DNA from: a virus
Lineage: Duplodnaviria > Caudoviricetes
Reading direction: 5' to 3' (one strand)
Length of the DNA: 27,331 nucleotides
Virus record (IMG/VR): IMGVR_UViG_3300011441_000031
Location: 1 to 27,331 of that record
Part shown: positions 252 through 20,476 of the stretch, piece by piece
How the letters are laid out: every line of letters starts with the position of its first letter
Numbering within the stretch: the stretch's first letter is position 1
Position numbers and translations under genes: made by a program
The notes under the pieces: generated by a model
Told to the model about the DNA's origin: nothing
Database searches by the model: none
Seen by the model: only the letters and a program-made list of their open reading frames with translations

Positions 252-593
252 ATGAAATGTCCAAGTTGTGACTTCATCGCCAAGTCTCCAGCCGGGCTCG
301 CAACGCACCGCCGCCTTATGGACCCGCAAGATTCGGCCGGCGGGTGCAACGTCAGGGCCGCTGACGTCACTCTAGCTGAGTTGCGGCGCATGGGCCGGCT
401 GGAGCAGATCGACGCTGCCCGGGTGCAGGCGTTGCGTTCTATTGCGGAGTCGCTGGACCTGAACCCGTTCAACTCGCAGATGTGGCGCGAGTACCGGGAG
501 GCGTTGGGGGAGTTGACCCGCGATGACTCTGACGATGACACGGTCGACGGGCTCTACGACCAGTTGTCCACCCAGGCACGCAACCCGTCGTAG
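252..593 (+). CDS. terS: Terminase small subunit with an N-terminal C2H2-like zinc finger
   Basis: 113 aa, overlaps the start of TerL; helical body with acidic tail; N-terminus CPSC...LATHRR. Confidence 0.7.
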   Translation: MKCPSCDFIAKSPAGLATHRRLMDPQDSAGGCNVRAADVTLAELRRMGRLEQIDAARVQALRSIAESLDLNPFNSQMWREYREALGELTRDDSDDDTVDGLYDQLSTQARNPS

Positions 594-3571: not shown

Positions 3572-3820
3572 GTGGCTGACACGATGGTTCTGCCCACCTA
3601 CTCGGACCGGGCGGACCGGGTAGCCCGTCACGCCGCAGAGGTGTCGCCGTCCCGCGCGGCGCGCAACATGGCGTTGTTTCTGCCGTGGCTGCTCGGGTTC
3701 ATGGTCTTCTGGTCGTGGTCATGGATCGTGTATGTGGGCAGCTGGATCGGCTTCGGCTTCCGTGAGGGCTTCGACCTGGGACGAACAGTTAAGGCGAAGC
3801 TCAGTCCGCGTGGCAGCTGA
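3572..3820 (+). CDS. Small membrane protein between TerL and portal
   Basis: GTG 3572 with GAGG 6 nt upstream; 82 aa with hydrophobic Trp-rich segment LFLPWLLGFMVFWSWSWIVYVGSWIGFG; stop overlaps the portal ATG. Confidence 0.7.
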   Translation: MADTMVLPTYSDRADRVARHAAEVSPSRAARNMALFLPWLLGFMVFWSWSWIVYVGSWIGFGFREGFDLGRTVKAKLSPRGS

Positions 3821-5316
3821 TGGACCTGTTCGGGCGGGTCGCGGCACGGCGCAGTAAGGCGCTGGAGCGCCGGCAGCGTTCGTGGCCGGTCGGTAAGGGT
3901 ACCGTCGCGCCGTGGGAGGCGTCGTGGGGCCATGACGATTCGCAGTTTTCGCCTGAATCCTACGGAGACTTTTTAGCGACTTCGAACGAGATCCACAGTG
4001 CGGCCATGCTGCGCGCACGGCTCATGTCTTCTCTGAGGCTGAATCTGTACAAGGGTTGGGACGAAGAGAAGAAGGCGATGCCGCAGCACCCGGCGGCGCA
4101 GCTGCTCAACTACGTCAATCCGCATTGGACGATGCGACGGTTAGCGCGCATGGATGAGTTGTCCATGTGTGTGTGGGGCGAGTCGTTCTGGGCGATTGAG
4201 ACGCAGCGGGGTAAGCCGACGGAGATCTGGTGGTGCAAGCCGTCGAGGATGAAGCCGGTGCCGCACGAGTCCAAGTACATTGCGGGCTGGCTGTATGAGC
4301 CGCAGTACGGCGGGCCGGTCATCCCGTTCCAGCCGGAAGAGGTCATCTGGTTCCGTTACCCCAACCCGTTGGACGAGTTCTCGGCGTTGAGTCCGGTGGT
4401 TGCGGCCCGACTGGCCGCAGAGGCCGCCAGTGCGATGATGACCAGCAACAAGGCCATGTTCGCCAACGGCCTTCAGGTGGCCGGTCTAGTAGTGCCGACC
4501 CGGCCAGATCAGGTGTTCTCCGAGGGCCAGGCCGAGGACCTGGAGGAATACCTGCGTCACAAGCTGTCCGGACCGGACAAGGCACACCGGTGGGCGGTGA
4601 TGCGCTACGAGGCCGCGTTCAAGCAGCTTTCGATCAGTCCGAAGGACGCCGAGTTCGTCAGCGGGCTTGGCCTGACGCTGCGGCAGGTGTGCAACGCCTA
4701 CGGCATCCCGGTGCCGCTGATGAACGATATGAGCTCGGCCACGCTGGCGAACGTGGGCGAGCTGACCAAAGCATTCTGGGCGCACACCTTGGTGCCGGAT
4801 TCGCAGCTACGCGCGGACGAGATTGTGGAACAGTTCCTGCCGCGTTTTGGCAAGAGCGGACCGAACTACGCCGAGTACGACTATGGCAAGGTCCCTGCCC
4901 TTCAGGAAGCTGCGTCGGAGACGTGGGCACGGGACGCGCAGCAGATGGACCGGGGCGCACTGACGATCAACGAGTGGCGGGCGAAGAACGGCATGGGGCC
5001 GGTCCCGTGGGGCGACACGGCGTGGCTGCCGCTGAACAAGGGCATGGTCACGGTCGGCGAAGACGGCGCCATCACGATCCAGCTACCGCAAGGCGCCGGC
5101 GGTCCGGACATGGCCGCGGAAGGCGACGGTACCGGCGGCGGGATTGACGAGGCCGCGGCCGACATTCTCAAGGCCATCGGCGGCCTACCAGACGACGAAC
5201 GGAACCCGGTCAACGCACCACCGGCACCACGGTTCGTGATCCCGAAACCGGCCGAGTTGGACCACATGGCCGCGCGGCGACTGCTGGCCGCGTTTGCCAC
5301 CAACGGGCACCGCTAA
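3820..5316 (+). CDS. Portal protein, HK97 family
   Basis: HPAAQLLNYVNPHWT, EEVIWFRYPNPLDEFSALSP, VCNAYGIPVPLM, GALTINEWRAKNGMGPVPWGD; position after TerL. Confidence 0.95.
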   Translation: MDLFGRVAARRSKALERRQRSWPVGKGTVAPWEASWGHDDSQFSPESYGDFLATSNEIHSAAMLRARLMSSLRLNLYKGWDEEKKAMPQHPAAQLLNYVNPHWTMRRLARMDELSMCVWGESFWAIETQRGKPTEIWWCKPSRMKPVPHESKYIAGWLYEPQYGGPVIPFQPEEVIWFRYPNPLDEFSALSPVVAARLAAEAASAMMTSNKAMFANGLQVAGLVVPTRPDQVFSEGQAEDLEEYLRHKLSGPDKAHRWAVMRYEAAFKQLSISPKDAEFVSGLGLTLRQVCNAYGIPVPLMNDMSSATLANVGELTKAFWAHTLVPDSQLRADEIVEQFLPRFGKSGPNYAEYDYGKVPALQEAASETWARDAQQMDRGALTINEWRAKNGMGPVPWGDTAWLPLNKGMVTVGEDGAITIQLPQGAGGPDMAAEGDGTGGGIDEAAADILKAIGGLPDDERNPVNAPPAPRFVIPKPAELDHMAARRLLAAFATNGHR

Positions 5317-5330
5317 GCCGGGGGGTGGTC

Positions 5331-8300
5331 ATGTCGCTGACCGCCGCAGCTGACGAGATCGACCAACTGTTCGCCGGCTTCACCCGCAAGCGTGTCCCCG
5401 GCGTGCCCGGTGATCCGGAGCACCTGAAACTCCACCCGCACAGTCCGCAGACGGGCAAGTTCGTGGAGACCCCGGACGTCGTTGCCGCGTTGGTTGATGC
5501 GATCAAGAAGAAGCTGACGGACAAGCCGGCAAAGAAGACCGCACCGAAGGCGACCAAGGCCGCCGCACCCCGTGCGCCCCGTGCGCCTAAAGCCGTCAAG
5601 GCCGCGCCGGCCAAGAAGGCCACCCCGGCGAAGGCTCCCACGAAGAAGGCGGTCTCGACCAAGAAGGCCGTATTGTCGAAGGCTCTACCCGACGGCACTG
5701 CGAAACGCGGCGATCTCGTGGTCGTTGAGACAACGGACTCGTACGCCGATGGCGGCCACCTAAACGGCGTTCCGGCGTTCCGGGTGGCGAAGGTCGTCAG
5801 TGTCACAAAAGACGGCAAGGTCAAGGCGTTCGTAACGGGAGATGACCCACCGCGGCGGGTAGAGCACCTACCGCGGGATCACAAGCTCCACGTGGTCTCG
5901 GCAGACCACATCGATGTAGATGCGGCGCTGGTGACAGCACGGGATAACCCGTGGCCGCATGCACCTGAGCACAAGGGCAAGGCATACGACTCGCTCGACG
6001 AGGTAAGGGAGGCGCTGCGCCCGCATCTGAAGGTGAAGGAGCGTGGTTCTTCACCCAAGTCGGTGCTCAGTCCGCCTACCGGCAGGTTCGAATTGGCTGA
6101 GGACCGCGGCCAAAGCGGTGACGGTAGGGCGCCGGGTGGCCAGTGGGGCCGCTACGGTGCTGCCGGTGTGCTCGTCCGGTCCACCGACGGCGACGAACCA
6201 CGGTTCCTGCTGCTGAAGACCGGCGCCTGGGTCGACGCCGGCGGTAAGTGGCAGCTTCCCGGCGGGGCGTTGGACGAGCACGAAAACCCCTACCAGGGCG
6301 TGGCGCGGGAAGCGCACGAAGAGATCGGCGTACCCGAGGACGTGGTCAAGTCCCTACGTCCGGTCGGCGAGCACGTCTACCAGCCGGACCCGGACTGGCG
6401 TTACACCACGATCGCCGCGGATGTGGATACGCCGTTTGAGGTGCGGATCGACGGCGACGAAACCACCGACGCGAAGTGGTTCACCGTAGCCGAGATTGAC
6501 CAGATGCTCGACGACGATGTGATCCAGAAGTCGCTGAAGAAGACCCTGCGCTCGATTATCGATTCGTACCCGAAGGCCAAGCCGGCCAAGAAGCCGCGCG
6601 CGCCGAAGGCCAAAGCGGCGAAGGCGGCCGGCAAGGCCGACGTTCGGGGACTCGCGGGCGTCAACGGTGGTCTTCTCGACGCGGACGCGGCGGACGGGTT
6701 CCAGCGGCGTCTTGACGGCGGCGAGTCACACAGCGCAGTGGCCGACGACATTGAGCGGTACGCCGCCAACGATGGCCTGCCTGCGCAACACGCCTGGGGC
6801 AGGATCGCGGCACGACTACGTGCCAACGACCCGAACCCGCCGGCCGCTGATGTGCAGGCGGGCCGGATTCGCCAGGCGAAGCTTGACTCGGCCCGGGAAG
6901 TCGCTGGCGTGCTCACCGAGCTGGACGAGCTACACGCCAGCAAGGCGTCACCGCGGGCGCTGGAACATCGGTTGCGGGCGCGCGCAAGGCAGGACAGTCT
7001 CCCGCAGGACATGACCGACGCGTTGATCGCGGCGGGTATCTCGGGCGATCGGAAGCAGATCGACAAGGCCATTGACCGTCTCGCCGCCGAACACGGTCTG
7101 ACCCGGATCAGTGCGCGCGCAGGCAGCGTTGAGCCGTTCGACCCGCGTACGCATGAGATGCTCGGCGACTCGACACGGGTGCCGGGCGGTGCCGTGCTAA
7201 TCGTTCGTCCCGGCTACGCGGTCGATGTGGACGGCGAGCGGGTCCAGGTGAGCCGCGCGGCGGTGCTACCGGCAACACCCGAACAGGCTGCCGCGGCCGT
7301 ACCGGTGAAGAAGGCCGTGAAGGCAGCAACCAAGACGGCAGCCAAGACGAAGGTGGAAGGCGGCGGCCGGGATCTGCTGGCGCTGGGCAGTGGGCCACTG
7401 GCTACGAAGCTGGTCAAGCAGGCCGGAGTCAGCGGGCTCGCGCCGGGGCAACGGCCACAGGGACCACACGGCGACGAGTTGTTGCACCACATCGCGTTGG
7501 AGCAAGGCTGGACCGACCGACCACGGCAGGTGGATCACGCCGAGTTTGACCGGCTGATCGCCGACGGACGGCCGGAACTGTTCCGGGGCGTGGAGACCCG
7601 CGCCGAGGTGGATCGGCTGGTCACGGGCGAGCCGTACTTCGGTGACTCGGTGTACGGGTCCGGCATCAACGCGACGTCGGACCGGCCAGATGCGTTGATG
7701 TACGGCGACCACGTGGTCCGGATGACGTTCGCGCCGGACACGCGGATTGTGGATCTGGACGAGGTGCAGGCCGACCAGGCCCGGTTCTGGTCGGCGAGGA
7801 CTCAAAGCGCCGATCAGCGGTTGGTGTTCGGCGGCGACTCCAGCCGGTTCGCCGCGGCGCGCGGTATCGACGTGATCCGGATCCGCAGGCAGGACGACGG
7901 CGAAGTGCTCGACGTTACCGAAGATCCAGCGTGGCTGGATGCGATCGCCGGCACGATGGGCTACCTTTCTGCGGCGGAACTACCCGATGGTGTCATCGCC
8001 GAGTTGCAACGCATGCGTGGCGAGCACTACTTGGTACTCAACCGGGGAGTGCTGGTGGTGGATACCGAACCGGCCGGTCTCGTAACCGCGCGCGAAGTGC
8101 CTTCCAGTCGATCCGCGCAGTCGAGCTTCACCCGCGCGGACGAGCCGCACACCGGCGCGATGGTTGCGCTCGTCCCCACCGCCGAAGACGCGAAGCGTCT
8201 TGCTGTTGACGACGGCCTGCCGGTTAATGAGCTGCACTGCACCCTGTTCTATCTTGGCGACGCCACCGACTTCCCGGCCGAGCCGCGTAAGCACCTGGTC

Positions 8301-11300
8301 GAGCTGGTCCGTGGCTACTTCACCGACGCCGTACTGGTTGAGGCCGACGGGTTCGCGCTGTCGCTGTTCAACCCGGGCGGCGACGAACCGTGCATCACGC
8401 TCGGTGTGTCCGGTGAAGGTGTTGAGAACGCGCGGCGCCGGGTGCTGGCCGCGGTCGAGGACTACGGCGCGGACCTACCCGAGCAACACCAGCCTTGGCA
8501 CGCGCATCTCACACTTGCGTACACCGATGATCTGGCCATGGTTGGTGAGTTGGTTGGCCGTACCGGGCCGGTGACCTTTGATCGGGTGCGAGTCGCGTTC
8601 GGTGGCGGATACGAGGACATCCCGCTCGGTAGCGAATCGAACGAGCCGCTGACTGACACGGACCGCGCCGCCTTCGATCTAGCTACCCGCATCGCCTCGC
8701 GGGCCGGGTTCAAGCCAAACCAGCCGCGTGACCCCGGTGGTGAGGGCGGCGGCCAGTGGATCCACATCGGCGGCAAGCTGTTCGAACTTCTTGACGGCGT
8801 CATGTCGGCGCTGCTACGTGACGACGGCACGGTAGAGCTGGCCCTTGACCCGGACGGGGACCGCCAACAGGTGCACTTCCCCGCATCCGACGGGACACTA
8901 TTGGCCGACGTGCTCGGTGATGCGGCGCACGGACCGTCCGACTTGGACGAACGCGACACGGTCAAGGTCGGCACGGACGGCGGCGACGTGTCGGTCACGT
9001 CCGGCGACGGCCGGGTAGTGCTCGGCTTCGACACCGACGACGGTCCGGCCACAGTCACCATGTCACCCGAGCAGGCCGACGAGGTCGCCGGCACACTGCG
9101 GGACTTCGCCGACCAAGCCACCCCGGCCACGGTCGCGTCGCGGGTCGTGTCCGAAGATCTGACGGTCAGCCTTGGCGCGGATGACCGGTTGCGGGTCACG
9201 TTGGGCTCGTCGGCCACCCCCGAACCGGTGGCGCTGACCGGCGCACAGGGCGTCGGGATCGTGGACGGCTTGGCCGAGTTCAAAACCTACAAGCCGACCG
9301 TCGCACCTAAGCCGAAGTGGTTCGGCAAGAAGGTCAAGCCCGACCCGAACGCCGACGATCTGGCCATTGTGGCGAGCCTGCGGGTCGACTCGACGACGGA
9401 CATGGACCTGTACGCCGACGGTTCCGTGTCGATCGCCGCACGTCTTGATGGTGGCGGTTCGACGGACGTGTACGTGCCGGCGCAGGACGTTGACGCGATG
9501 ATCGCCGCACTGAAGGAACTACTCGGCATGGCCCGAGATTGGCGCTCGCTGATCCGAGCAGGGTTTGACGTCCACCAGCCGCGCGACCCGGTAGGGCGCT
9601 GGGTCGACATGCCCCTGTCGTGGGCCGAGTTGATTGAGCGGTTCGGGGATCTGGTCGACGAACGCAACGTCGGCGACTACCACATCGGCGCCCACGAGGG
9701 CGGCCGGGTCGTGCTCAGCTTCGACGCGGACACCCCTGGTCGTCGTACGGTACTACGGGATCTCACCCCCGACGAGGCCCGCGCAGTGGGTGACGACCTA
9801 GACGAGATGGTGTTCGACGCCGCGAACGTCGAGATCGACGACGACGACCCACCGGCGAGCATGAACGATCTTGTCGACGACACCAGCACCGCGCTGCGAC
9901 CCAAGCCGATGACGGTGGGCTACGACTACACGGGCGACATTCACCTCTTCGCCGGTGATGACGATGACGCTGACGAGGTGGCGACCCTCAGCCAGGACGA
10001 GGCAACTGACCTCGCCAACGCATTGCGCGAGTCAGCGGACGGGGCTGATCTGGCCATCGAACGCCGCGACGACCGCGAAGAGGCCGAGCGCCACCGGCGG
10101 GAAAAGGAACGGGAAGCCGCCGATCTGGCCGCTGAACGAGAAGAGGACGAGCGGCTTCGACTCGAAGAGGAACGGGTGGCAGCCGGGGAGACCGAGAGGC
10201 TACGCGCCGAAGAGGAGCGTGAAGCCGCCGAAAGCTGGTGGGAGGACGTTCTCGTTCCGGTCGGTGGTAACCGGTTGGGTATGCAAAGCCCCACTGTTGT
10301 CGAGGTTGAGGACGTTGCGGGTGGTTGGGGCAGCACAACAGTTCCCGTCGAGGATCTCCCTTCGCTGGCCGCCGCGATCCGCGATCTCCGGCGGCAGAGT
10401 GACGGCCTGCCCGAGTTCGTTGGTGAGGACGAAGACGGCGAGGAGATCGGGCCCGAGGTCGTCGCCGAGCGCAAGGTGTCGGATCGCCTGACCCTGAGTC
10501 TGCTCGAAGACGGCAACATGACTCTCCTCACAACCGACCCTGACATCACATGGGAGATCTCGGTCTGGCAGGACAACGCCTCGGAGTTGGCGGATGCGTT
10601 GGAACGACTACTCGCTCGGATACGCGCTACGCCGCAACGCGGCTGGCGGGCCGGTTTCAAGCCGGGTCAGCCGCGGGTACCGTCGCACCCCGGCATGCCG
10701 AATCCGAGTGGCGGCGAGTGGGTCAAGCTGCTCTCCGGCGGGCCGCTGGAAAGCCTGCTGTCCAAGCGCGGCGTCCGGGACATCGCCAAGGCGCTGGATC
10801 TGTGGGCGTCCGGCGGTGGCGACGACAAGCCGCTGGCCGGGTTCTCCGACGGCCAACTGCGCCGGGCCGCACGGGCACAGGGGATCCCGCACGGCGGGGA
10901 TCGGGAAGCGGTGGAGGAGCGGATTCTCGACGAGGTCCGCCGGGTCGTGTCAGCGCGCCGGGCGGGGCACCGGGACCGGCCGAGCTACTCGTTCGGCCGG
11001 GGGGTGGATCGGCCGCAAGCCCGCGACCGGGACGGCCGGCTACGCGACGTCGAGATCCACCAGACGCCGGGCGGCGTGTCGGTGGTGCTGCTCGACTCCC
11101 GCGGCCAGCGCGTCTCCACCGCCGTGGCGGTGAAGGACTTCACCCAACTGCGGGCGTGGGCGAAGCGAAACAAGCTGCGCAACCTGGCCGGCTGGATCGA
11201 CAAGTACCACCCCACTACCCGCGGCGCCAAAGCACGCCGGCAGCGGCGCATCAACGAGACGGTAGACCAGCTCCGCGCGGCACTCACGTACGACGCGGCC

Positions 11301-12719
11301 CGAGCGCAACTGGACGGGATGGAACCGGCCGAGGTTACGGACATCTTCACCCAACTCGGCGGCCGGCTGGATCACCTGCCCAAGGCACCCAGCGGGCGAA
11401 TCAACCAGCGCAGCGCCATCGGCGCGCTGCTGGCCGGCTGGCCGGAGTTTGCCAGAGCGGGGGAGCTTGATCCGGGAGACGTTGCTGTTGCTGATGCGGC
11501 GGAGTTGTCCATACCCGAGCTGTTCGACGACGGGCCTGCGCAGGGGGTTCCGGCGCCGCCGGACGCGTGGGGTGGCCTGCTGGACTGGTTGGATGTGACC
11601 GACGACGAGCGGGCCCGGGACGACGGGCTCACTCGCGACGCCGCGTTCGAGGCGCTTCACCCGCGTTACAAGAAGCCTCACCCGAAGGCCGGCAAATTCA
11701 TGTCGAAGGCCGACATTGCCATGGCCATTGCCGACGCGCTCACCGGGAAAGTACACGCCGGTGAAGCGAAACCGGCAACGAAGAAGCCTGCCAGACCCCG
11801 CGTGCCCCACGCGTCGAAAGCTGTCAAGGCCACGCCGGTACCTGCAAAGAAAGCAGCGCAGGCGGCGGAAGAACGCGCCGCGGCGCGCGCCCACGTTGGG
11901 GGCATCATCGCCGAGTTGGAACGTTCTCATCCGGATCTTCGCGAAGAGGACAGGGCCGTGATTGGTGCGATCCACGCGGCCCTGGACCGGCAGGCTGAGT
12001 TGGTGCCACGTACGGTGATGCACCTGCACGGAGTGGGCTTCCTCCCCGAGAGCGGCTTCGGCTCATACCAGCCGGCTTACAACTTTGGCACGAGCCCGAT
12101 GATCCCGGATGAGAAACGGTACGGGCCCGGTCAGCAGATCTGGCTGAACCGCAAGTGGGTCACGCACCGCCGCTTCCCCGACCACGATGCGACACGGCGC
12201 TATCGCGCGGAACTCGAAGAGAAATTCGTCGAGGTGGTACGCAAGGGGTGGTTTCCGGGATCCGCAGGCGCCGATGACCCGATGACGTACGTGGTCAGTC
12301 ACGAGACGGGACACCACCTACAGCGGATGTTGGCCTTCACCGTGCCCGCCTACGGACTTGGGGGGAGGGAACACGTCGAGGAACGCTTCCGGCCGGCCGT
12401 GCTGCGTCCGTTGTTGACCGCGTTGGACACCCACATGGGCACGACGTTCATGGCGGACCTCGACTCGCGAGGCACCTATCGGGAACGGGCCGGGCTCGTA
12501 GTCTCTATGGACTACCTCGATGGCGTAGCGAAGAAACATGGCAGGAAGTTGACGAAGGATGTCTCCGGCTACGGCGGGTCGGGCAAGTTCGACGAACTGC
12601 TCGGGGAGGTCTGGGGCCGCTACAGCATGGAGGGCGACACCGCCCCGGACCCGATCCGCCAGGTCGCTATGATACTCCAGCGGCTCGCCGAACAGGCCGC
12701 GAAGAAGTGGACGCCATGA
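5331..12719 (+). CDS. Giant polyvalent protein (2462 aa): Lys/Ala/Pro linkers, Nudix, GrpE-like, ART-like, 2H phosphoesterase, acidic repeats, basic HeH-like module, C-terminal zincin
   Basis: ATG 5331 after a G-rich RBS. Nudix box GALDEHENPYQGVAREAHEEIGV (6264-6332); FDPRTHE...RPGY (7095-7265); LFRG...YGSG...VLNR (7470-8060); HCTL and HLTL (8235, 8505); HETGH (12300-12314) with VSGYG...ELLGE. Confidence 0.85.
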   Translation: MSLTAAADEIDQLFAGFTRKRVPGVPGDPEHLKLHPHSPQTGKFVETPDVVAALVDAIKKKLTDKPAKKTAPKATKAAAPRAPRAPKAVKAAPAKKATPAKAPTKKAVSTKKAVLSKALPDGTAKRGDLVVVETTDSYADGGHLNGVPAFRVAKVVSVTKDGKVKAFVTGDDPPRRVEHLPRDHKLHVVSADHIDVDAALVTARDNPWPHAPEHKGKAYDSLDEVREALRPHLKVKERGSSPKSVLSPPTGRFELAEDRGQSGDGRAPGGQWGRYGAAGVLVRSTDGDEPRFLLLKTGAWVDAGGKWQLPGGALDEHENPYQGVAREAHEEIGVPEDVVKSLRPVGEHVYQPDPDWRYTTIAADVDTPFEVRIDGDETTDAKWFTVAEIDQMLDDDVIQKSLKKTLRSIIDSYPKAKPAKKPRAPKAKAAKAAGKADVRGLAGVNGGLLDADAADGFQRRLDGGESHSAVADDIERYAANDGLPAQHAWGRIAARLRANDPNPPAADVQAGRIRQAKLDSAREVAGVLTELDELHASKASPRALEHRLRARARQDSLPQDMTDALIAAGISGDRKQIDKAIDRLAAEHGLTRISARAGSVEPFDPRTHEMLGDSTRVPGGAVLIVRPGYAVDVDGERVQVSRAAVLPATPEQAAAAVPVKKAVKAATKTAAKTKVEGGGRDLLALGSGPLATKLVKQAGVSGLAPGQRPQGPHGDELLHHIALEQGWTDRPRQVDHAEFDRLIADGRPELFRGVETRAEVDRLVTGEPYFGDSVYGSGINATSDRPDALMYGDHVVRMTFAPDTRIVDLDEVQADQARFWSARTQSADQRLVFGGDSSRFAAARGIDVIRIRRQDDGEVLDVTEDPAWLDAIAGTMGYLSAAELPDGVIAELQRMRGEHYLVLNRGVLVVDTEPAGLVTAREVPSSRSAQSSFTRADEPHTGAMVALVPTAEDAKRLAVDDGLPVNELHCTLFYLGDATDFPAEPRKHLVELVRGYFTDAVLVEADGFALSLFNPGGDEPCITLGVSGEGVENARRRVLAAVEDYGADLPEQHQPWHAHLTLAYTDDLAMVGELVGRTGPVTFDRVRVAFGGGYEDIPLGSESNEPLTDTDRAAFDLATRIASRAGFKPNQPRDPGGEGGGQWIHIGGKLFELLDGVMSALLRDDGTVELALDPDGDRQQVHFPASDGTLLADVLGDAAHGPSDLDERDTVKVGTDGGDVSVTSGDGRVVLGFDTDDGPATVTMSPEQADEVAGTLRDFADQATPATVASRVVSEDLTVSLGADDRLRVTLGSSATPEPVALTGAQGVGIVDGLAEFKTYKPTVAPKPKWFGKKVKPDPNADDLAIVASLRVDSTTDMDLYADGSVSIAARLDGGGSTDVYVPAQDVDAMIAALKELLGMARDWRSLIRAGFDVHQPRDPVGRWVDMPLSWAELIERFGDLVDERNVGDYHIGAHEGGRVVLSFDADTPGRRTVLRDLTPDEARAVGDDLDEMVFDAANVEIDDDDPPASMNDLVDDTSTALRPKPMTVGYDYTGDIHLFAGDDDDADEVATLSQDEATDLANALRESADGADLAIERRDDREEAERHRREKEREAADLAAEREEDERLRLEEERVAAGETERLRAEEEREAAESWWEDVLVPVGGNRLGMQSPTVVEVEDVAGGWGSTTVPVEDLPSLAAAIRDLRRQSDGLPEFVGEDEDGEEIGPEVVAERKVSDRLTLSLLEDGNMTLLTTDPDITWEISVWQDNASELADALERLLARIRATPQRGWRAGFKPGQPRVPSHPGMPNPSGGEWVKLLSGGPLESLLSKRGVRDIAKALDLWASGGGDDKPLAGFSDGQLRRAARAQGIPHGGDREAVEERILDEVRRVVSARRAGHRDRPSYSFGRGVDRPQARDRDGRLRDVEIHQTPGGVSVVLLDSRGQRVSTAVAVKDFTQLRAWAKRNKLRNLAGWIDKYHPTTRGAKARRQRRINETVDQLRAALTYDAARAQLDGMEPAEVTDIFTQLGGRLDHLPKAPSGRINQRSAIGALLAGWPEFARAGELDPGDVAVADAAELSIPELFDDGPAQGVPAPPDAWGGLLDWLDVTDDERARDDGLTRDAAFEALHPRYKKPHPKAGKFMSKADIAMAIADALTGKVHAGEAKPATKKPARPRVPHASKAVKATPVPAKKAAQAAEERAAARAHVGGIIAELERSHPDLREEDRAVIGAIHAALDRQAELVPRTVMHLHGVGFLPESGFGSYQPAYNFGTSPMIPDEKRYGPGQQIWLNRKWVTHRRFPDHDATRRYRAELEEKFVEVVRKGWFPGSAGADDPMTYVVSHETGHHLQRMLAFTVPAYGLGGREHVEERFRPAVLRPLLTALDTHMGTTFMADLDSRGTYRERAGLVVSMDYLDGVAKKHGRKLTKDVSGYGGSGKFDELLGEVWGRYSMEGDTAPDPIRQVAMILQRLAEQAAKKWTP
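11706..11752 (+). repeat. Direct repeat B, copy 1 (copy 2 at 13228-13274)
   Basis: 47 nt with 1 mismatch, encoding KADIAMxIADALTGKV, in frame in both genes; weaker similarity extends over 11658-11785 / 13180-13306. Confidence 0.9.
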
Positions 12720-12997
12720 CCACCACCGGCCCGTACCTGTGTCTGGCGTGCACCAGACCAGCCGGGATGCGCGACGACACCTGCACGGCGTACCCCGATG
12801 GCATACCCAGGGAGATACTCGCTGGTGGAGACCATCGGGGACCGCGGGGCGACGAACGTAACGGGCTGGTGTTCATGAAGCGGGGCGACCCGTCGGCGGA
12901 TATGGTGTTCGCCGCCTGGCGGTCTTTGGCCGGCGGCGAAGGGCCACGATCGTCATCTGCGGAGGTACCGCCAGTTGAACAAGGTGCCGCTTCGTGA
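12716..12997 (+). CDS. Small Cys/His protein, putative partner or immunity protein of the upstream zincin
   Basis: ATGA overlap with the giant gene; CLAC...CTAYPDGIPREILAGGDH pattern, a type I associate with phage head-associated metallopeptidase genes. Function inferred. Confidence 0.7.
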   Translation: MTTTGPYLCLACTRPAGMRDDTCTAYPDGIPREILAGGDHRGPRGDERNGLVFMKRGDPSADMVFAAWRSLAGGEGPRSSSAEVPPVEQGAAS

Positions 12998-13140
12998 CCA
13001 CCACCGTCTTGTACTCACCTAACGACGGTGTTGGGGGTTGGGCGTCAACTTTGGCCCAAACCGCCGACGATGAGGTGCAAGACGTGTCGGTCCGGGCGCT
13101 GCTCGACGGGATCGACGTGGTACTTGGACTCGCCGATGGG
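12994..13140 (+). repeat. Direct repeat A, copy 1 (copy 2 at 15892-16038)
   Basis: 147 nt, 15 mismatches counted by hand (10 synonymous); encodes a 49-aa N-terminal leader, 45/49 identical. Confidence 0.95.
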
Positions 13141-14268
13141 GCGAGTTTCGTACGCGGCGCCGTTTTCGATCCCGCTAAGCATCCGCGCTACCCGAAAGGC
13201 CACCCCAAGGGCGGCAAGTTCATGACCAAGGCCGACATTGCCATGACCATTGCCGACGCGCTCACCGGGAAAGTGGCTGCCGGCGAGGTAAAACCTGCGA
13301 AGAAGCCGCGCGTGCCCCGTGCGCCGAAGGCCGCCAAGGCAGCATCGGCCAAGGCACCGGCGAAGAAGGTTGCCACACCGGCCGAGACGCTACCACGCCG
13401 CCGGCCGAAAGGGCCCAAGAAGGCCAAGAGGCCTAAGGGCGGCACCGAAGTGCCGGCCGCGGCGAAGGCGTACCACCGCAACCTTGACGGCGTCGAAGAC
13501 CTCGCCGAGCACGTCGAGTCCGGATCAATCCGCGATCGGCGGATACCACTGACCAGTAGTGGAGCGTCGGGCGCGACAGTCGAACGGGTTGAGTTCGCTG
13601 ACGGGTCCATGGCAGTAGCCAAAACATATGCCGGTTTTGAGCCGTCACGGTTCACCGTCAAACATCAGGCCGACGCCGAGCACCTGTCGTCCTTGCTGGC
13701 ACGGGCGTTGGGCGTCTCGTCGCCTGGCGTGTACCGTCGCGAGTTCGGCGAGACGTGGCAAGAGTACGTTCCGCACCCGTCAGCGGATGAGGTACGGATG
13801 TCCCTGATGGGCGACGTAGACGAAGTAGAACGGCTTTATCGCCGGGCGAGTCGATCAGATGCCGGGCGTCGGCTTGGGCTGCTCGACCTCATGACACTCA
13901 ACTTCGATCGACACGAGGGCAACTGGCTTGTCGGTGATCACGGCCGGCCGGTGGCCATTGATCACCAGTTTTCGTTCGATCCGGACTTGGTCGACCGCGA
14001 AGCCTTCGCGTACGCAGCTGTCCGTAGTCCGTTCACCGACCGGTATATGGACCGTACGTTTGGCCCGATCGGCGCAAACGGCCTGAACGCGTACGAGTGG
14101 AACGAAAGCAATCCGCTCACGCGAGACGATGTGGACGAGTTGCGCCGTCGGCTGGAGGCGTTGAGGCCGGACTTCGCCCACCGCGGTCGGGAGAACTGGC
14201 TCAACTACGCGCTCCGGATACTCGACGCGTTGGAGCCCCACGCACGCGGGAAGAGGTCGATCTTGTGA
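12994..14268 (+). CDS. Leader + HPR motif + basic linker + HipA/PI3-PI4-kinase-like domain
   Basis: GTGA overlap; Gly-rich loop SSGASG, AVAK, DAEHL, catalytic NFDRHEGNWL (13906-13923), metal-binding AIDHQFSF. Confidence 0.85.
   Translation: MTTTVLYSPNDGVGGWASTLAQTADDEVQDVSVRALLDGIDVVLGLADGASFVRGAVFDPAKHPRYPKGHPKGGKFMTKADIAMTIADALTGKVAAGEVKPAKKPRVPRAPKAAKAASAKAPAKKVATPAETLPRRRPKGPKKAKRPKGGTEVPAAAKAYHRNLDGVEDLAEHVESGSIRDRRIPLTSSGASGATVERVEFADGSMAVAKTYAGFEPSRFTVKHQADAEHLSSLLARALGVSSPGVYRREFGETWQEYVPHPSADEVRMSLMGDVDEVERLYRRASRSDAGRRLGLLDLMTLNFDRHEGNWLVGDHGRPVAIDHQFSFDPDLVDREAFAYAAVRSPFTDRYMDRTFGPIGANGLNAYEWNESNPLTRDDVDELRRRLEALRPDFAHRGRENWLNYALRILDALEPHARGKRSIL
13228..13274 (+). repeat. Direct repeat B, copy 2
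   Basis: 46/47 identical to 11706-11752. Confidence 0.9.
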
Positions 14269-15734
14269 AGACCCTTGCCGTGGTCAGTGTTGACACCGAC
14301 ACCGAAGTATCTCGGATCGTCCTGTCCGACGACGGCGCGGTTACCTACTCGGGCGGCGGCTCGGGTAAAGGCGTACACCAGCAAGCGATGCGGGTCGGTG
14401 GTCTCGGCGCGGTCGAAGCGTTCGACCTGCTGGCCGAGCAGGGGTGGTCCAACGGCAAGCTGCGAATCGTCGAGGCCCCACTCGACGACGAACGGGCGTG
14501 GTGGTCGGCCTTCGAGCGCGAGCTGAGCGGTGCGGATCTGGCCGACTTCAACGCCAAGCATCCGCGTGGTCTGGGCGGGAAGTTCGCCAAGAAGCTCGCG
14601 GAGAGCATCGCCGAAGCACTCGGCGATATGGTCGATGCGGGCAAGGCCAAGCCGCCGCGGAAACCGCGTGCACCGAAGGCGAAGAAGACCGCTAAGGGCT
14701 TGGACGAGGTACACACTGAGGCGGACCTACACGCACTCACTGTGGTGCAGCTGCGCGAGTTGGCCAAGTTGCGTGGTGTCAAAGTGCCGGCGCGAGCGTC
14801 ACGGGCCGAACTGGTCGACGCACTGAAGCCACCACCGCCGAAACCAACCCCGCTTCCGACGCTGACAGGTCGCCACCACACGTGGTGGCTTGACCGTGGC
14901 GACACCGAACCTGACCGGCCGGTTCCGGTACGGGACTTGCAGATCGGCGAGGGTCGTGACGGCACACCCGTCGTCATCCGCAGCGGGTCGCTGCATCGGC
15001 GCGGCGGAGTGGTGGTACTGGTCGACCACGACGGCTTGAGCGACATGGTGTCCGAGGACAAAGTGGTGCGGGAGTTCTTCGATCAACACCGCGAGTTCGA
15101 AACCGCAACGTCGCAAGCCGGCAAATACCAGCGCGGCTACGCCTGGGTTGCGCAGTCCAACCCGGACGACGCCTACTTCGCAACCAGCTACGGCCTGCCC
15201 GACATGGTCTCTTTCGCCACCGCCGGTAACGGGACCACGACGGTGTGGGGTCAACGAGATCCCGTCTTCGGGCCGGGCGGCCACCGGTACATACTGCGGC
15301 ACGAATTCGGCCACAACGTCGGTAGGGGTGTGCTCGCACAATCAGGGTTGGCGCAACTACACGACGGATCTGTGGCGTGGGCCGCTGCGGCGCGGCACGA
15401 CGGCGCAGGCTACCGGCTCAGTAGCGTGGACGACTACGAGGCTTGGGGTGGACTTCCGAAGCCTGAGCTTTACCCCGATCCCTACCGCCAGTTTCCCGAC
15501 GGCGTGACGGACTACGGCCGGAGCAGCCAAGCCGAGGACTTCGCCGAGTCGGTGATGCTGTACCTAAATGAGCAGCGGATCGGCAACGGTCGCCTGGCGC
15601 CGGGAGCGCCGTGGACCGCAATCTATTTCCGGGATCTCTTCCCGGCGCGGGCCGCGCTGCTGGACCGGATCTTCCCCGACGTGGCAGTCAGACAGCAGAA
15701 CCTGCGTCGGTCACTGACGGACGCTCGATCGTGA
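14265..15734 (+). CDS. Small WSNG domain + HPR motif + Rho-N/HeH-like domain + anthrax-lethal-factor-like zincin
   Basis: GTG 14265 overlaps the kinase stop, GAGG RBS at 14253-14256. LTVVQLRELAKLRGVKVPARASRAELVDAL; NPDDAYFA; HEFGH (15300-15314); VTDYGRSSQAEDFAE; FPARAALL. Confidence 0.85.
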   Translation: MKTLAVVSVDTDTEVSRIVLSDDGAVTYSGGGSGKGVHQQAMRVGGLGAVEAFDLLAEQGWSNGKLRIVEAPLDDERAWWSAFERELSGADLADFNAKHPRGLGGKFAKKLAESIAEALGDMVDAGKAKPPRKPRAPKAKKTAKGLDEVHTEADLHALTVVQLRELAKLRGVKVPARASRAELVDALKPPPPKPTPLPTLTGRHHTWWLDRGDTEPDRPVPVRDLQIGEGRDGTPVVIRSGSLHRRGGVVVLVDHDGLSDMVSEDKVVREFFDQHREFETATSQAGKYQRGYAWVAQSNPDDAYFATSYGLPDMVSFATAGNGTTTVWGQRDPVFGPGGHRYILRHEFGHNVGRGVLAQSGLAQLHDGSVAWAAAARHDGAGYRLSSVDDYEAWGGLPKPELYPDPYRQFPDGVTDYGRSSQAEDFAESVMLYLNEQRIGNGRLAPGAPWTAIYFRDLFPARAALLDRIFPDVAVRQQNLRRSLTDARS

Positions 15735-15861
15735 ACATCGTTGACGTCGTCTGGCCGTCCGCGTCGGCTTCTACGATCTCGCCACGTACCGCCTTGTCAC
15801 GGTCGTCGGTGACCTTGCCGTCGGCGTCAACGAGGATCAGCGTCCCTGTGGGTTCGGTCAT
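15688..15861 (-). CDS. Small acidic protein (57 aa), putative immunity partner of the adjacent zincin; the only credible minus-strand gene
   Basis: MTEPTGTLILVDADGKVTDDRDKAVRGEIVEADADGQTTSTMF; fills the gap between two + genes; internal DADG duplication; typical high-GC codon use on the minus strand. Confidence 0.65.
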   Translation of the reverse strand: MTEPTGTLILVDADGKVTDDRDKAVRGEIVEADADGQTTSTMFTIERPSVTDAGSAV

Positions 15862-15891
15862 GCCTACCAGTGTCCCACGGGAGGCGACCAC

Positions 15892-16038
15892 GTGACCACC
15901 ACCGTCTTGTACTCACCTAACGACGGCGTTGGGGGATGGGCGTCAGCTCTGGCCCAAACCCTCAACGACGAGGTGCAAGACGCGTCAGTACGGGCGCTGC
16001 TCGACGGGATCGACGTGGTACTTGGGCTCGCGGACGGC
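15892..16038 (+). repeat. Direct repeat A, copy 2
   Basis: About 90% identical to 12994-13140. Confidence 0.95.
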
Positions 16039-16785
16039 TTCACCCGCGACGAAGCGGAATCCGACGGCGAGGACATGGTCCGCTACGTGCGAGACCTGCT
16101 GGCCCGCGTAGACATCCACCCCGGCGGCGAAGAGCTTCACCACTGGTGGACCAAGACACCCGAAGGACTCGCCGAATGGGCTGTTGGCCACGCACACCCG
16201 TGGACCACGTTGTACGAAAAACTGCTAGCCCACATGAACGGCAACGAGCTGCTGGCTAAGAAAACCGCGAGCGCTTGGTACATCGAGGTCTTTCATCACA
16301 CCCCGAACCAAAAGCACGGCCGGGCCGGTTTCAAGAAGGACCAGCTACGAGATCCGCTCACCGGCGAGTGGATTGATGCGCCGCATGGGACCATGAACGA
16401 CGTGGCCAAGTGGCTTGAGGGCCTTACGGCCGATGACGTCGAGCGAGCCGTCTCGGCCCGACACCCCGCCGTTCAGCTATCCGTCGCACGCACGGGCGGT
16501 GGGGATCTAAGACTCAGTCTGATCCGTACCTCGCCGGACAGGCGGGGCGAGGGCAAGGCAAAAGCGGCGATGGCGGACCTACTCGACGCCGCTGACCATC
16601 TAGGCGTGAGGATGACCTTGACGGCCGAGCCACTAGCGGGCGACGAAACGACCAGCAAGTCTCGCCTCGTTGGTTGGTACAAGTCGCTCGGGTTTGTCGA
16701 AAACAAGGGTCGTCATAAGGACTACGGACTCAGCGACGCCATGTATCGCGAGCCTCGGCCAAGGACCGCGAACCCGACGACCTAA
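15892..16785 (+). CDS. Leader + Trp/His-rich small domain + motif + GNAT acetyltransferase
   Basis: GGAGG RBS before the GTG; acetyl-CoA motif A RRGEGKA; MTLTAEP; motif B RLVGWYKSLGF. Confidence 0.85.
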   Translation: MTTTVLYSPNDGVGGWASALAQTLNDEVQDASVRALLDGIDVVLGLADGFTRDEAESDGEDMVRYVRDLLARVDIHPGGEELHHWWTKTPEGLAEWAVGHAHPWTTLYEKLLAHMNGNELLAKKTASAWYIEVFHHTPNQKHGRAGFKKDQLRDPLTGEWIDAPHGTMNDVAKWLEGLTADDVERAVSARHPAVQLSVARTGGGDLRLSLIRTSPDRRGEGKAKAAMADLLDAADHLGVRMTLTAEPLAGDETTSKSRLVGWYKSLGFVENKGRHKDYGLSDAMYREPRPRTANPTT

Positions 16786-16854
16786 CGTCACGGGGAAGAT
16801 TGCGGGCGTCCCCGAAGGAACGCCCGCCCATACCTGACCCCACCGTAAACCGTC

Positions 16855-16883
16855 AACCCCGTCGTCTTGCTCGACGGGGTTTT
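16855..16883 (+). terminator. Putative intrinsic terminator after the accessory block
   Basis: AACCCCGTCG-7 nt-CGACGGGGTT followed by a short T run; a second hairpin lies at 16802-16827. Confidence 0.55.
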
Positions 16884-16886
16884 ATC

Positions 16887-17612
16887 ATGCCCGGAGTTGT
16901 CTCGGCCGTGACGCAGGTTGCCGAAGTTCAGATGTGCAAGACGTGCAATGAGCTCAAACCGGTCGGGCGCTTTAGTGTCAAGGGTGGCCGGTGGGTGCAC
17001 CGGACCTGCAAGGACTGCTGTAATCGCCAAGCGTCCGAGCGTCGTAGATCGTCCGAAGGAAGGAAAGAGCGCCTACTCGAACTCCGGCGTTACCGCGAGA
17101 CCGATAGAGGCCGAGAAGTACACGAGGCCGCTAGGCGCAAGTACGCCGCGAAACGGTTGGCCGAGGGACCGAGCATTACGCGTGACAGTCGGGTCTGTAG
17201 TCGTTGCCGATGTCACTTGCCAATCGAGCTGTTTACGGCGAACCGGTCCTCAGCCGATGGTCATGACAGTTATTGCAAGCACTGCCGGCTAGAGGTCAAC
17301 CGGGAGTACCGGGCTAGGCATCCGGAGCGCATCCGTGAGCGGGTCCGGGCCAAGATGCTGAAGGCGAACTACGGCCTGACGCCGGCCGCGTACGACGTGA
17401 TGCTCGCAGACCAAGGCGGCCAATGTGCCGTTTGTGGCGCAACGGACCCACGCACCCAGGCGGGCGTGTTCTGCGTCGACCACTGCCACACGACGGGAGT
17501 TGTACGGGGCCTGCTGTGCAGTGCCTGCAACAGCGGCCTTGGCCACTTCAGTGATGACCCAGATGTCCTTCGTGCGGCAGCCAGTTACATCGAAGCCGCC
17601 CGCAGTCGCTGA
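16887..17612 (+). CDS. Endonuclease VII-family His-Me nuclease with N-terminal zinc ribbons (probable homing endonuclease)
   Basis: YGLT...MLADQGGQCAVC...VDHCHTTGVVRGLLCSACNSGLGHFSDD. Start uncertain. Confidence 0.9.
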   Translation: MPGVVSAVTQVAEVQMCKTCNELKPVGRFSVKGGRWVHRTCKDCCNRQASERRRSSEGRKERLLELRRYRETDRGREVHEAARRKYAAKRLAEGPSITRDSRVCSRCRCHLPIELFTANRSSADGHDSYCKHCRLEVNREYRARHPERIRERVRAKMLKANYGLTPAAYDVMLADQGGQCAVCGATDPRTQAGVFCVDHCHTTGVVRGLLCSACNSGLGHFSDDPDVLRAAASYIEAARSR

Positions 17613-17675
17613 CACAGTCGGCGCCGTCATCCCCGTACGCATTTTGCACCCACCCACCGAGGAGGGGGTTCCCGC

Positions 17676-18887
17676 ATGCAACCGACAGCAAATCCAGTAC
17701 CGCAGTTCACCAGGGCATTCGTGGAGGCGGGAGGAAATCGTCTCGCCGACCTACCGGCCGGCGCAGCCATATCGTTCGTGGCGTCGACTTCTGGACTTAA
17801 GCGTGACGGTCTAAGTCTGCGCGCGAGTGGTTGGCGGGTGGACAACTTCCACCGGGCCGGCGGGCCGGTGTTGTGGTGCCATGATCATCAACGTCCGCCG
17901 ATCGGCAAAGCTGCCGCGACGACCGGCACGCACCTTAGAGCGAGCGTGTCCTTCGACCAAGAAGACGAGTTCGCCCGCGCCGTTGAATCCAAGATCAAAA
18001 GGGGCTATTTGGGTGCCTGCTCTGTGGGGTGGGACTTCGTCGATTCATCCGGTAGTCGGCTCGACCACAACCGGCACTCCCCTTCGTGGCTGGCCGAAAA
18101 CAGTCTCTATGACCTGACGGAAGTCTCGATAGTCCCCATCGGCGCCGATCCATTGGCCATGGCCGAACGCCAACGCCGCGCGCTCGGCACGCTCGGCCGG
18201 GAACTGGTCCAGCTCTACGACGACCAGGAACGGGCCGACTCCGACGTCACCGCAGATGAACTGTTTCCCGCCGTCGTCGAGTGGTGCCGCCGCCACGGCG
18301 TGGACCTGGGCGAGTACGCCGACCTGTCCAACGTGCGGCAGTGGGGCGACGGCGAAGACGGCGAGGGAACCGAGGCCGAGCCGGCACGCAACACCCGCGG
18401 CGCCATCCCATCCCACAAGAACACATCCACTGACATGGACGGTGCGTGGGACGCCGACGCCGAACTAGCCAAGGCCGACGGTGCTGCGCAACTCATGCGC
18501 ATGCATGCCTGGCGCGACTACGACGGCGAGCCGGACGCCAAGTCGACCTACAAATTGCCGCACCACCACGCCGACGGAACCCTGTCGTGGCGCGGTGTCG
18601 CCGCAGCCATGGGCCGGCTCAGCCAGACCGACATCAGCGACGAAGACAAGGCCGGCGTGTACCGCCACCTGACGGCGCATTACCGCCAACTCGGCAAGGA
18701 CGAACCCGACCTGCGCGCCACCCTGTCCGGCTACATCCGCGCCGCCGACCTGGAACTCACCCGTTCGGCTACCGAACCCACCAACGACCCGGCATCGGCC
18801 GGGGAAAACGTCCCACCCGCATCCGCGGGCGTGGATCACCAAGCTGCGCGGTTAGTCCTCGCGGCGTTCGCTCTAAAGGAGAAATAG
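17676..18887 (+). CDS. Prohead (capsid maturation) protease, HK97/S78 type, with C-terminal accessory domain
   Basis: FVAST, PVLWCHD (His), PPIGK, GACSVGW (Ser), LTEVSIVPIGADP (Glu); directly upstream of the capsid gene. Confidence 0.92.
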   Translation: MQPTANPVPQFTRAFVEAGGNRLADLPAGAAISFVASTSGLKRDGLSLRASGWRVDNFHRAGGPVLWCHDHQRPPIGKAAATTGTHLRASVSFDQEDEFARAVESKIKRGYLGACSVGWDFVDSSGSRLDHNRHSPSWLAENSLYDLTEVSIVPIGADPLAMAERQRRALGTLGRELVQLYDDQERADSDVTADELFPAVVEWCRRHGVDLGEYADLSNVRQWGDGEDGEGTEAEPARNTRGAIPSHKNTSTDMDGAWDADAELAKADGAAQLMRMHAWRDYDGEPDAKSTYKLPHHHADGTLSWRGVAAAMGRLSQTDISDEDKAGVYRHLTAHYRQLGKDEPDLRATLSGYIRAADLELTRSATEPTNDPASAGENVPPASAGVDHQAARLVLAAFALKEK

Positions 18888-20375
18888 ATGAGCGACACAA
18901 CGACGCTCACCCGCGAGGACTTCGATGTTGTCGCGACCGAGATTCGGGGCAAGCTCGACGCGCTTGACACCGGCCAGCAGGAAGCGCTGTCCGACGTACG
19001 GCTCAACGAGCTGATCCGCACCAACCTGGAGACCTTCCTGGCATCCGAGGGTGCCGGCGAGATCGTCCGCAAGATGCGATTCTCTGCACCGGCAACCGAG
19101 CTGGTCGGCACCAAGTACGCCCGGCTCGGGCTCGACGTGGCCGACGTCGAGATGCTGCACGACATCCTTCAGTCCGCACAGATCGCGCGGATCTCGCGCG
19201 GTCCGTCCGAGGAACTGACCCGCACCTTCGAGGCTATTTCGGCCGGCCGGTACTGGTCGACCGCGATGGCCCGGGCCGAGGACGAACGCCATCTCACCGA
19301 GATGCGGCGCGCCGGGCGGCTCGACAATGTCGGGTACGAGCGGGCACTTCGTGCGATGGACACTGCGGAGACCGGCTACGGCCTTCAGCTGATCGGCGCC
19401 CAGTACGTCGGCGACCTGTGGGAGTCCGCACGCAAGGACTCGCGCATCTTCAGCCTGCTCGACTCGATCGAGCTGACCGAGGCCACCACCTACATCCCGG
19501 TCGAGGCGGACCTGCCCGAGATGCTGTTCGTGGGTGAGTCAACGTCGTCCACGGCGTCGGACTACACCACGAGCCCGGTCGGATCGAACCGCGTCCAGAT
19601 GACACCATCGAAGTTCATCATTCACATGATGTACTCGGGCGAAATGGAGGAGGATTCGATCATCCCCTATCTGCCTTATCTGCGTCGGCAGGCCGGGCTG
19701 TCCATGCAGCACTACTCCGATTCCGCCGTCCTCAATGGAGACACCACCAACGCCGGCACCGGCAACATCAACCTCGACGACGCCGACCCGGCCGACTCGA
19801 AGCATTACCTGGCTTTCGATGGTCTCCGTCACGCCTGGATCGTGGACAACACCAACAACAAGATCGACGCCGGCGGAGCAGTCTCGCTCGACCTGCTCCG
19901 CCGGCTCCCGGGCCTGATGGTGGACGACACCTACCTGATGGACTGGGGTCACCCAGCCATCGCCAGCGATCTGGTGTACATCTCCGACCCGCGCACCGCG
20001 GACCGGATCGCGCTCCTGGACGAACTGGTGACGGTCGATAAGTACGGTAGTAACGCAACCGTACTCACCGGCGAGGTCGCGCGCATCGGCATGAACCCGC
20101 TGATCGTCTCGATGGCCATGAGCCGCACCGAGGCCGACGGCAAGCTGTCCACCACCGGATCGAACAACGTGAAAGGCCAGGTCATGGCCTTCAACAAGCG
20201 GGGGTACAAGGCAGGCTGGCGCAGGCGAGTTGTCATGGAATCTGAACGTTTGCCCGGCCGTGACCAGACAAGGTTGATCTGGTCGCTTAGGCTCGGTTTT
20301 GCCCGATTCACCCCAACCGGTTCCGCCTCGGCGATTGAGAGTGCTGCCGGTCTATACGATATTCTGCTCCCCTGA
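18888..20375 (+). CDS. Major capsid protein, HK97 fold, with N-terminal delta domain
   Basis: AAGGAG RBS; helical first ~155 aa, then ALR/AMDTAETGYG; SGEMEEDSIIP; AVLNGD; FDGLR. Confidence 0.92.
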   Translation: MSDTTTLTREDFDVVATEIRGKLDALDTGQQEALSDVRLNELIRTNLETFLASEGAGEIVRKMRFSAPATELVGTKYARLGLDVADVEMLHDILQSAQIARISRGPSEELTRTFEAISAGRYWSTAMARAEDERHLTEMRRAGRLDNVGYERALRAMDTAETGYGLQLIGAQYVGDLWESARKDSRIFSLLDSIELTEATTYIPVEADLPEMLFVGESTSSTASDYTTSPVGSNRVQMTPSKFIIHMMYSGEMEEDSIIPYLPYLRRQAGLSMQHYSDSAVLNGDTTNAGTGNINLDDADPADSKHYLAFDGLRHAWIVDNTNNKIDAGGAVSLDLLRRLPGLMVDDTYLMDWGHPAIASDLVYISDPRTADRIALLDELVTVDKYGSNATVLTGEVARIGMNPLIVSMAMSRTEADGKLSTTGSNNVKGQVMAFNKRGYKAGWRRRVVMESERLPGRDQTRLIWSLRLGFARFTPTGSASAIESAAGLYDILLP

Positions 20376-20400: not shown

Positions 20401-20467
20401 TAGAATTGAGGCGTAGACATAGGTGGCCCCAGCGATGCTCGCGGCATCCTGGGGCCTGGCCGGGAGG
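20401..20467 (+). promoter_or_regulatory. Candidate promoter and leader hairpin of the HNH gene
   Basis: TAGAAT at 20401-20406; hairpin 20425-20456 (GGCCCCAG/CTGGGGCC plus GATGC/GCATC); GGAGG at 20463-20467. Confidence 0.45.
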
Positions 20468-20476
20468 AACCCCGAC

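Follow-up and report, generated by a model that had tools for sequence, protein, structure and literature searches.

A C-terminal helix common to the portal and prohead protease of an HK97-type phage head module, and its possible role in head assembly

The window (the whole stretch of DNA analysed, 27,331 bases) is a linear virus record whose + strand carries a siphophage-like operon for head and tail, in the order terminase, HK97-family portal, about 12 kb of cargo-like genes, S78 prohead protease and major capsid protein (MCP). A PF04860 portal and an S78 prohead protease both lie upstream of the MCP, as in the HK97-type head module, and the features concerned are the following:

3820-5316, + strand: HK97-family portal, 498 aa, with no MuF fusion (PF04860, E 2.8e-55)
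17676-18887, + strand: HK97-type (S78) prohead protease, 403 aa (PF04586, 24.9 bits against a cut-off of 21)
18888-20375, + strand: MCP with an HK97 fold, from a structure model and Foldseek
18888-19352, + strand: MCP delta domain, residues 1-155, all-helical by structure prediction

The nearest solved chain to the portal is the portal 8cez_A. The MCP has no Pfam or PHROG match, and the best Foldseek matches of its model are the DT57C, P4/P2, T5 and HK97 capsids (E 7e-12 to 4e-10), the fold being nearest to T5-like capsids. The Arg/Ala boundary at the end of the delta domain is conserved, with A156 in 51/51 and R155 in 39/51 aligned sequences, and R155/A156 is the predicted site at which the delta domain is likely cut. 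Named portal homologs have Actinomycetota as their sources, and from these source names we infer an actinobacterial host group for the phage family. The terminase large subunit (523-3408, 961 aa) has an internal LAGLIDADG domain that is likely an intein, and the protease-capsid pair is flanked by Endonuclease VII and HNH genes (16800-17612 and 20423-21595), which are likely homing endonucleases. An unnamed accessory domain of ~105 aa is inserted within the protease at about 18396-18710; its structural look-alikes occur stand-alone and also on S78, ClpP, MuF and Mu-like protease proteins.

The portal and the protease, at the two ends of the cargo-like region, finish in similar peptides, both read from the sequence; a further motif, found by homolog comparison, follows the portal copy:

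5257-5298, + strand: portal tail helix LDHMAARRLLAAFA, residues 480-493; 18.3 bits on the protease-tail profile
18831-18872, + strand: protease tail helix VDHQAARLVLAAFA, residues 386-399; 24.9 bits on the protease-tail profile
5302-5307, + strand: terminal Asn-Gly motif of the portal, after the helix

A preliminary description of this DNA had reported the 14-residue likeness, and it is real, with 10/14 positions identical; the flexible linker said to precede each peptide is also there, as a Pro/Ala/acidic stretch in both proteins that is disordered in the portal model. The peptides had been placed at the extreme C-terminus, and they do lie near the C-termini but are not terminal, with 5 (portal) and 4 (protease) residues remaining before the stops; an ssrA-like degron reading was dropped for this reason. 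In the portal structure model the peptide forms an isolated helix (residues 482-491, pLDDT about 69), and the stretch just before it, residues 465-480, has pLDDT<50. The consensus of the 12-14-residue helix is D-x-x-A-A-R-x-L-L-A-A-F, with a modest hydrophobic moment of 0.28-0.32. The Asn-Gly motif occurs within the last 25 aa of 111/119 portal homologs, as compared with 0/21 protease homologs. A second helix in the portal tail, at residues 442-453 (5143-5178; predicted 444-454), is weakly motif-like, at 4.3 and 7.9 bits.

The best 14-mer score between the two tails is 49, which is reached by 0/10,000 shuffles of the tails and by 0/500 shuffles of the whole proteins. The DNA coding for the peptides is identical at 28/42 bases, and identical codons are used at four of the ten shared residues, where codon usage predicts 4.5, the other six differing synonymously. 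Because codon identity is no higher than codon usage predicts, the likeness is kept at the protein level, and on this comparison we reject recent duplication at the DNA level as its origin.

We collected 129 loci, of which 87 have a complete portal and protease; removal of duplicates left 66, comprising 34 with a MuF-less portal (window included) and 32 with a MuF-fused portal. The preliminary description had proposed looking for joint conservation of the two tails in related phages, and homologs do indeed share the tails. In a pair test, portal and protease tails match at p<=0.05 in 12/34 MuF-less loci, 11 of them on the helix, and in 1/32 loci with MuF-fused portals. A protease-tail profile whose training set was the 33 tails from outside the window, run over 7,968 positions in 19 ORFs of the window, puts the protease and the portal in its first two places (24.9 and 18.3 bits), and the third-best position reaches only 5.6 bits. 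Among 119 portal homologs, the best match to this profile falls <=40 aa from the C-terminus in 92, and scores of >=8 bits are found in 64 tails as against five bodies. The reverse profile, built from portal tails with the protease profile as its seed, accepts 29/34 MuF-less protease tails versus 3/32 tails of the MuF lineage.

The helix is kept less regularly on the portal than on the protease, and its portal copy is not universal: it reaches >=8 bits in only 14/34 MuF-less loci, and among held-out loci the helix is found in 2/15 portals versus 9/15 proteases, with 0/9 portals and 0/9 proteases in held-out MuF loci. Most of the 32 MuF-fused portals show nothing better than shuffled sequence when scanned with a profile of MuF-lineage protease tails; two MuF-fused portals (L002 and L026) end in an amphipathic-looking helix after MuF, without significance in the pair test. 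Searching viral contigs with a degenerate DNA form of the motif gave 0 matches. In an MCP tree (FastTree, midpoint root) the MuF-less phages do not form one clade, and we therefore draw no order of events. Long MCP relatives (69/150 matches at >=600 aa; eight of the 12 checked have an S78 match) are too distant to inform, with four scattered helix-profile matches at >=8 bits.

Such a pattern might in principle come from convergence, the helices being generic terminal amphipathic helices of Ala-rich, GC-rich proteins that serve membrane contact or have no shared function. MuF-lineage protease tails are amphipathic helices of a different sequence, and many portals have no clear copy, as convergence would allow. 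However, composition-preserving shuffles fail to reach the match, matches of >=11 bits on the opposite strand and outside portal and protease number only two among 389,200 windows, and the protease tail scores at most 24 against the capsid tail, so that we hold convergence to be the least probable of the readings weighed here.

Six loci with the same portal family carry a ClpP-type protease (PF00574) that is unrelated to the S78 enzyme of the window. The helix ends 6/6 of these complete ClpP-type proteases, four at p<=0.01 and two at p 0.07-0.08, a count that is not blind since the four strongest were first spotted by score, although ClpP tails were absent from the profile training. Held-out loci supply another two ClpP tails, at 15.6 and 5.5 bits, and the portals beside ClpP keep the helix, at 10 bits in L086 and 15 bits in L128. 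Judged by these sequences, the tail helix survives a swap of the HK97-type for the ClpP-type protease and is carried on three unrelated folds. With three such folds carrying the helix and the capsid protein family as the constant partner, the pattern argues against the protease as receptor. In one relative (P0124), a ClpP protease is fused in front of an S78-type protease homologous to that of the window, with the same terminal helix.

The same observations bear on whether the helix could be a substrate tag, an exosite ligand read by the protease that marks portal and cargo tails for clipping. A Lys or Arg lies <=6 residues before the helix in 42/63 portals, and an F-x-R follows it in the cargo of the relative L132, as a clipping tag might predict; but S78 and ClpP proteases both carry the helix, so that two unrelated folds would need the same exosite, and the portals beside ClpP retain it. 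We regard this explanation as very unlikely.

How an assembling head takes up its single portal and its few dozen protease copies is not well understood, since contacts with the scaffold are mobile and seldom visible in maps. C-terminal prohead targeting was reportedly shown for HK97 gp4 by Duda, Oh and Hendrix in 2013, and the last segment of gp4, behind an acidic linker, looks amphipathic. For SPN3US gp245, the C-terminus of the protease has been proposed to target it to the prohead (PMC7411985, PMC5694885). These two proteases likewise end in a short segment after a linker, and their head modules include a cleaved N-terminal scaffold domain, as is predicted here; the difference is that in the phage family of the window the helix is found at the end of the portal too, and at the start of cargo proteins. 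The HK97 portal (gp3) contains no copy of the gp4 tail by sequence comparison, and HK97 gp3, gp4 and gp5 give no match to the helix profile (at most 1.0 bit). A candidate 'ILG' motif common to the HK97 portal and protease was discarded, having no literature support and corresponding to no shared peptide in the sequences. In HK97, as PMC10275583 describes, the portal touches the capsid precursor chiefly at the scaffold domain and binds that domain through a charged groove between its wing domains; contact with the delta domain would thus be common to HK97 and to what we propose here, made by the wing groove in the one and by a tethered C-terminal helix in the other. The tail appears to be of a known kind, the terminal prohead-targeting peptide, and what appears new is one helix on portal, protease and the cargo of relatives. 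A literature search, with Duda 2013 and supplements outside its reach, returned no report of a peptide common to portal and protease C-termini.

Between the portal and protease genes lie cargo-like ORFs in which the preliminary description had seen looser echoes of the helix preceding Arg sites:

5325-12719, + strand: 2464-aa multidomain cargo-like protein with NUDIX and 2H phosphoesterase domains (domain matches)
5358-5381, + strand: IDQLFAGF followed by TR, N-terminal in the 2464-aa protein; 5.4 bits, rank 32 on the portal-tail profile
12993-13139, + strand: 49-aa leader of a 424-aa ORF (12994-14268), with SVRALLDGI at 13087-13113
14265-15734, + strand: cargo-like ORF, likely with a GTG start at 14265
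14490-14513, + strand: ERAWWSAF-ER in the ORF 14265-15734; negative on both profiles
15891-16037, + strand: duplicate leader of a 297-aa ORF (15892-16785), with SVRALLDGI at 15985-16011 and F-T-R at 16039

All four strings named as echoes are present, but all are negative on the protease-tail profile. SVRALLDGI is modestly supported, its copies ranking 4 and 5 of 7,968 on the portal-tail profile, but the two leaders are one 147-nt duplication with 90% DNA identity; shuffles give p 0.006-0.046 for the string and do not control for ordinary amphipathic helices. In the 424-aa ORF it precedes an F-V-R site, which is followed by a repeat at 13165 (described below). IDQLFAGF-TR and ERAWWSAF-ER are in register with the helix-F-x-R arrangement of the relative L132, with weak or negative profile scores, and are supported by position only. 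YVRDLLARV, at 16084, fared worse: it aligns within a conserved domain, away from the motif, and sits after, not before, its nearest F-x-R site, and a looser portal-tail profile together with the alignment to a non-motif part of the domain rules it out as an echo of the helix. Across the window, F-[TVEI]-R sites are mildly enriched, with six in 4,631 head and cargo residues versus three in 3,415 others. Outside the window, no homolog of the 49-aa leader was seen among the loci examined, and searching with the 297-aa ORF recovered nothing but proteins of the window.

Mimicry of the tail by cargo, weak in the window, is clearer in two relatives whose leaders copy the protease tail. In L132, a 324-aa gene starts with a copy of that phage's own two-helix protease tail (37% over 46 residues); its leader helix scores 13.4 bits (p 0.001) and an Arg stands directly after it, and the giant protein of the same locus has a borderline helix copy (10.2 bits, p 0.059). 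In L131, the same contig as L088, the leader of a 532-aa gene aligns to its own protease tail (39% over 51 residues; 8.7 bits, p 0.013), and the 2194-aa giant has no helix copy by profile. Two other loci, L094 and L118, have cargo domains fused in front of the protease, and the fused domain of L094 is homologous to residues 1411-1575 of the giant protein in the window.

Capsid-targeting peptides on cargo have precedents in T4 IPI-III/Alt and P1 DarB, which carry N-terminal capsid-targeting sequences tested by experiment, as described in PMC7411985 and PMC9024508. There too a short peptide is common to unrelated head proteins and is proposed to load them. The T4 and P1 tags are N-terminal, whereas the helix here is C-terminal on portal and protease and apparently takes the leader position only in cargo; the T4 tag is removed by the protease, and here Arg sites flank the helix in many cases and are weakly enriched. 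The 2464-aa ORF fits the phage polyvalent proteins, which are large and multidomain (2H, NUDIX), lie among head genes and are thought to be packaged (Iyer et al. 2017, PMC5512222), since it combines NUDIX and 2H in one large protein beside head genes; its packaging is predicted. Fusion with MuF and with the portal is a recognised means of loading polyvalent proteins (PMC5512222), and in the parts of that account drawn on here no loading peptide copied from a protease tail is seen.

The docking partner was approached through covariation, using partial Mantel tests whose p-values are inflated since the loci are related: once similarity in MCP and portal core is controlled for, the helices of portal and protease still vary together (partial rho 0.31, p 0.0025, n 21 after three portal fragments were dropped), and the portal helix co-varies with delta residues 1-155 (0.33, p 0.002), as the portal core does not (-0.11). 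The portal helix tracks mature MCP residues 291-345 equally well, and the protease helix tracks the same residues (0.32, p 0.002, n 40 with one mis-registered row dropped) and shows no correlation with delta in these tests (p 0.11 and 0.55). The signal is split between delta and MCP 291-345, and delta is not singled out.

That both helices co-vary with MCP 291-345 would suit docking at the inward-facing side of the mature HK97-fold domain, in the manner of the C-terminal helices of free scaffolding proteins, and the P22 and T7 scaffold-binding domains are described as lying near the spine helix and N-arm (PMC10275583). Yet the MCP spine segment 259-290 has no covariation signal with the helices, the delta domain itself occupies that surface in the fused-scaffold phages described (PMC10275583, PMC12749128), and the 291-345 signal may reflect only fine-scale ancestry; we consider inner-face docking unlikely. 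Covariation of the portal and protease helices with each other, and the second upstream helix of several proteases and cargo leaders, could instead point to portal, protease and cargo helices bundling together in a mixed inner core, with no capsid-protein receptor. A single short Ala-rich helix with a hydrophobic moment of 0.28-0.32 would be a poor self-oligomeriser, however, and such a core would still need a link to the shell, which leaves bundling a decidedly unlikely arrangement.

The reading we prefer, at roughly even odds (about 0.5), is that the tail helix is a common means of docking on the capsid precursor, most likely on its delta domain, during head assembly. The preliminary description had already inferred an amphipathic docking helix for the capsid delta/scaffold domain that cargo proteins mimic, and the findings support this in part. 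Behind it stand the shared sequence, its conservation, its presence on two unrelated protease folds and the cargo-leader copies in two relatives, all at the level of sequence comparison. On its flexible linker, the helix would dock portal and protease onto the capsid precursor, its small hydrophobic face perhaps seated in a helical groove on the delta domain. With twelve such copies tethered to it, the portal could help to collect capsid subunits around itself, the same site would draw the protease inside, and cargo may reuse it by means of a copied leader. The protease would then cut at Arg sites, namely capsid R155/A156 and the F-x-R after cargo leaders, and cutting would remove the delta domain and free the cargo. 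A bolder version, to which we lean rather less than to its contrary, makes the portable 12-residue helix a universal head address in this phage family, which tethers the portal to the capsid scaffold and so nucleates assembly, loads any protease that the phage has taken up and smuggles in effectors bearing a duplicated tag; cargo would then be a competitor of portal and protease for a single receptor site.

Were the helix shared by all three, deleting or swapping this one peptide would probe recruitment of the portal and the loading of both protease and cargo at once. Shared docking, if true, would also account for the trading of one protease type for another and for the gain of new packaged effectors through duplication of a tail; the helix could then serve as a small tag with which proteins are loaded into the heads of actinobacterial phages.

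The cargo genes of the window also contain a repeat distinct from the tail helix, F-x-P-xx-(H/Q)PR...G-x-W/F, in seven copies:

8709, 9564, 10656 and 11646, + strand: F-x-P-xx-(H/Q)PR repeats in the 2464-aa protein
13165, 14547 (in the ORF 14265-15734) and 16330, + strand: F-x-P-xx-(H/Q)PR repeats in further cargo genes

The repeat is often right after R-A-G, is also present in L088, L094, L118 and L132, and would, from its position, become a new N-terminus after cleavage; Lys/Ala/Pro-rich repeats come after several of its copies. By eye, the cargo region (5325-16785) includes segments that we take to be GrpE-like, ADP-ribosyltransferase-like, an HExxH metallopeptidase and GNAT-like, and the 424-aa ORF has a weak PI3/4-kinase-like Pfam match. 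In the relative represented by L088 and L131, the cargo (L088:2817-3857 and L131:2473-9057) includes a Zeta-toxin/AAA_33 protein as well as a helicase-methylase giant carrying SAP domains.
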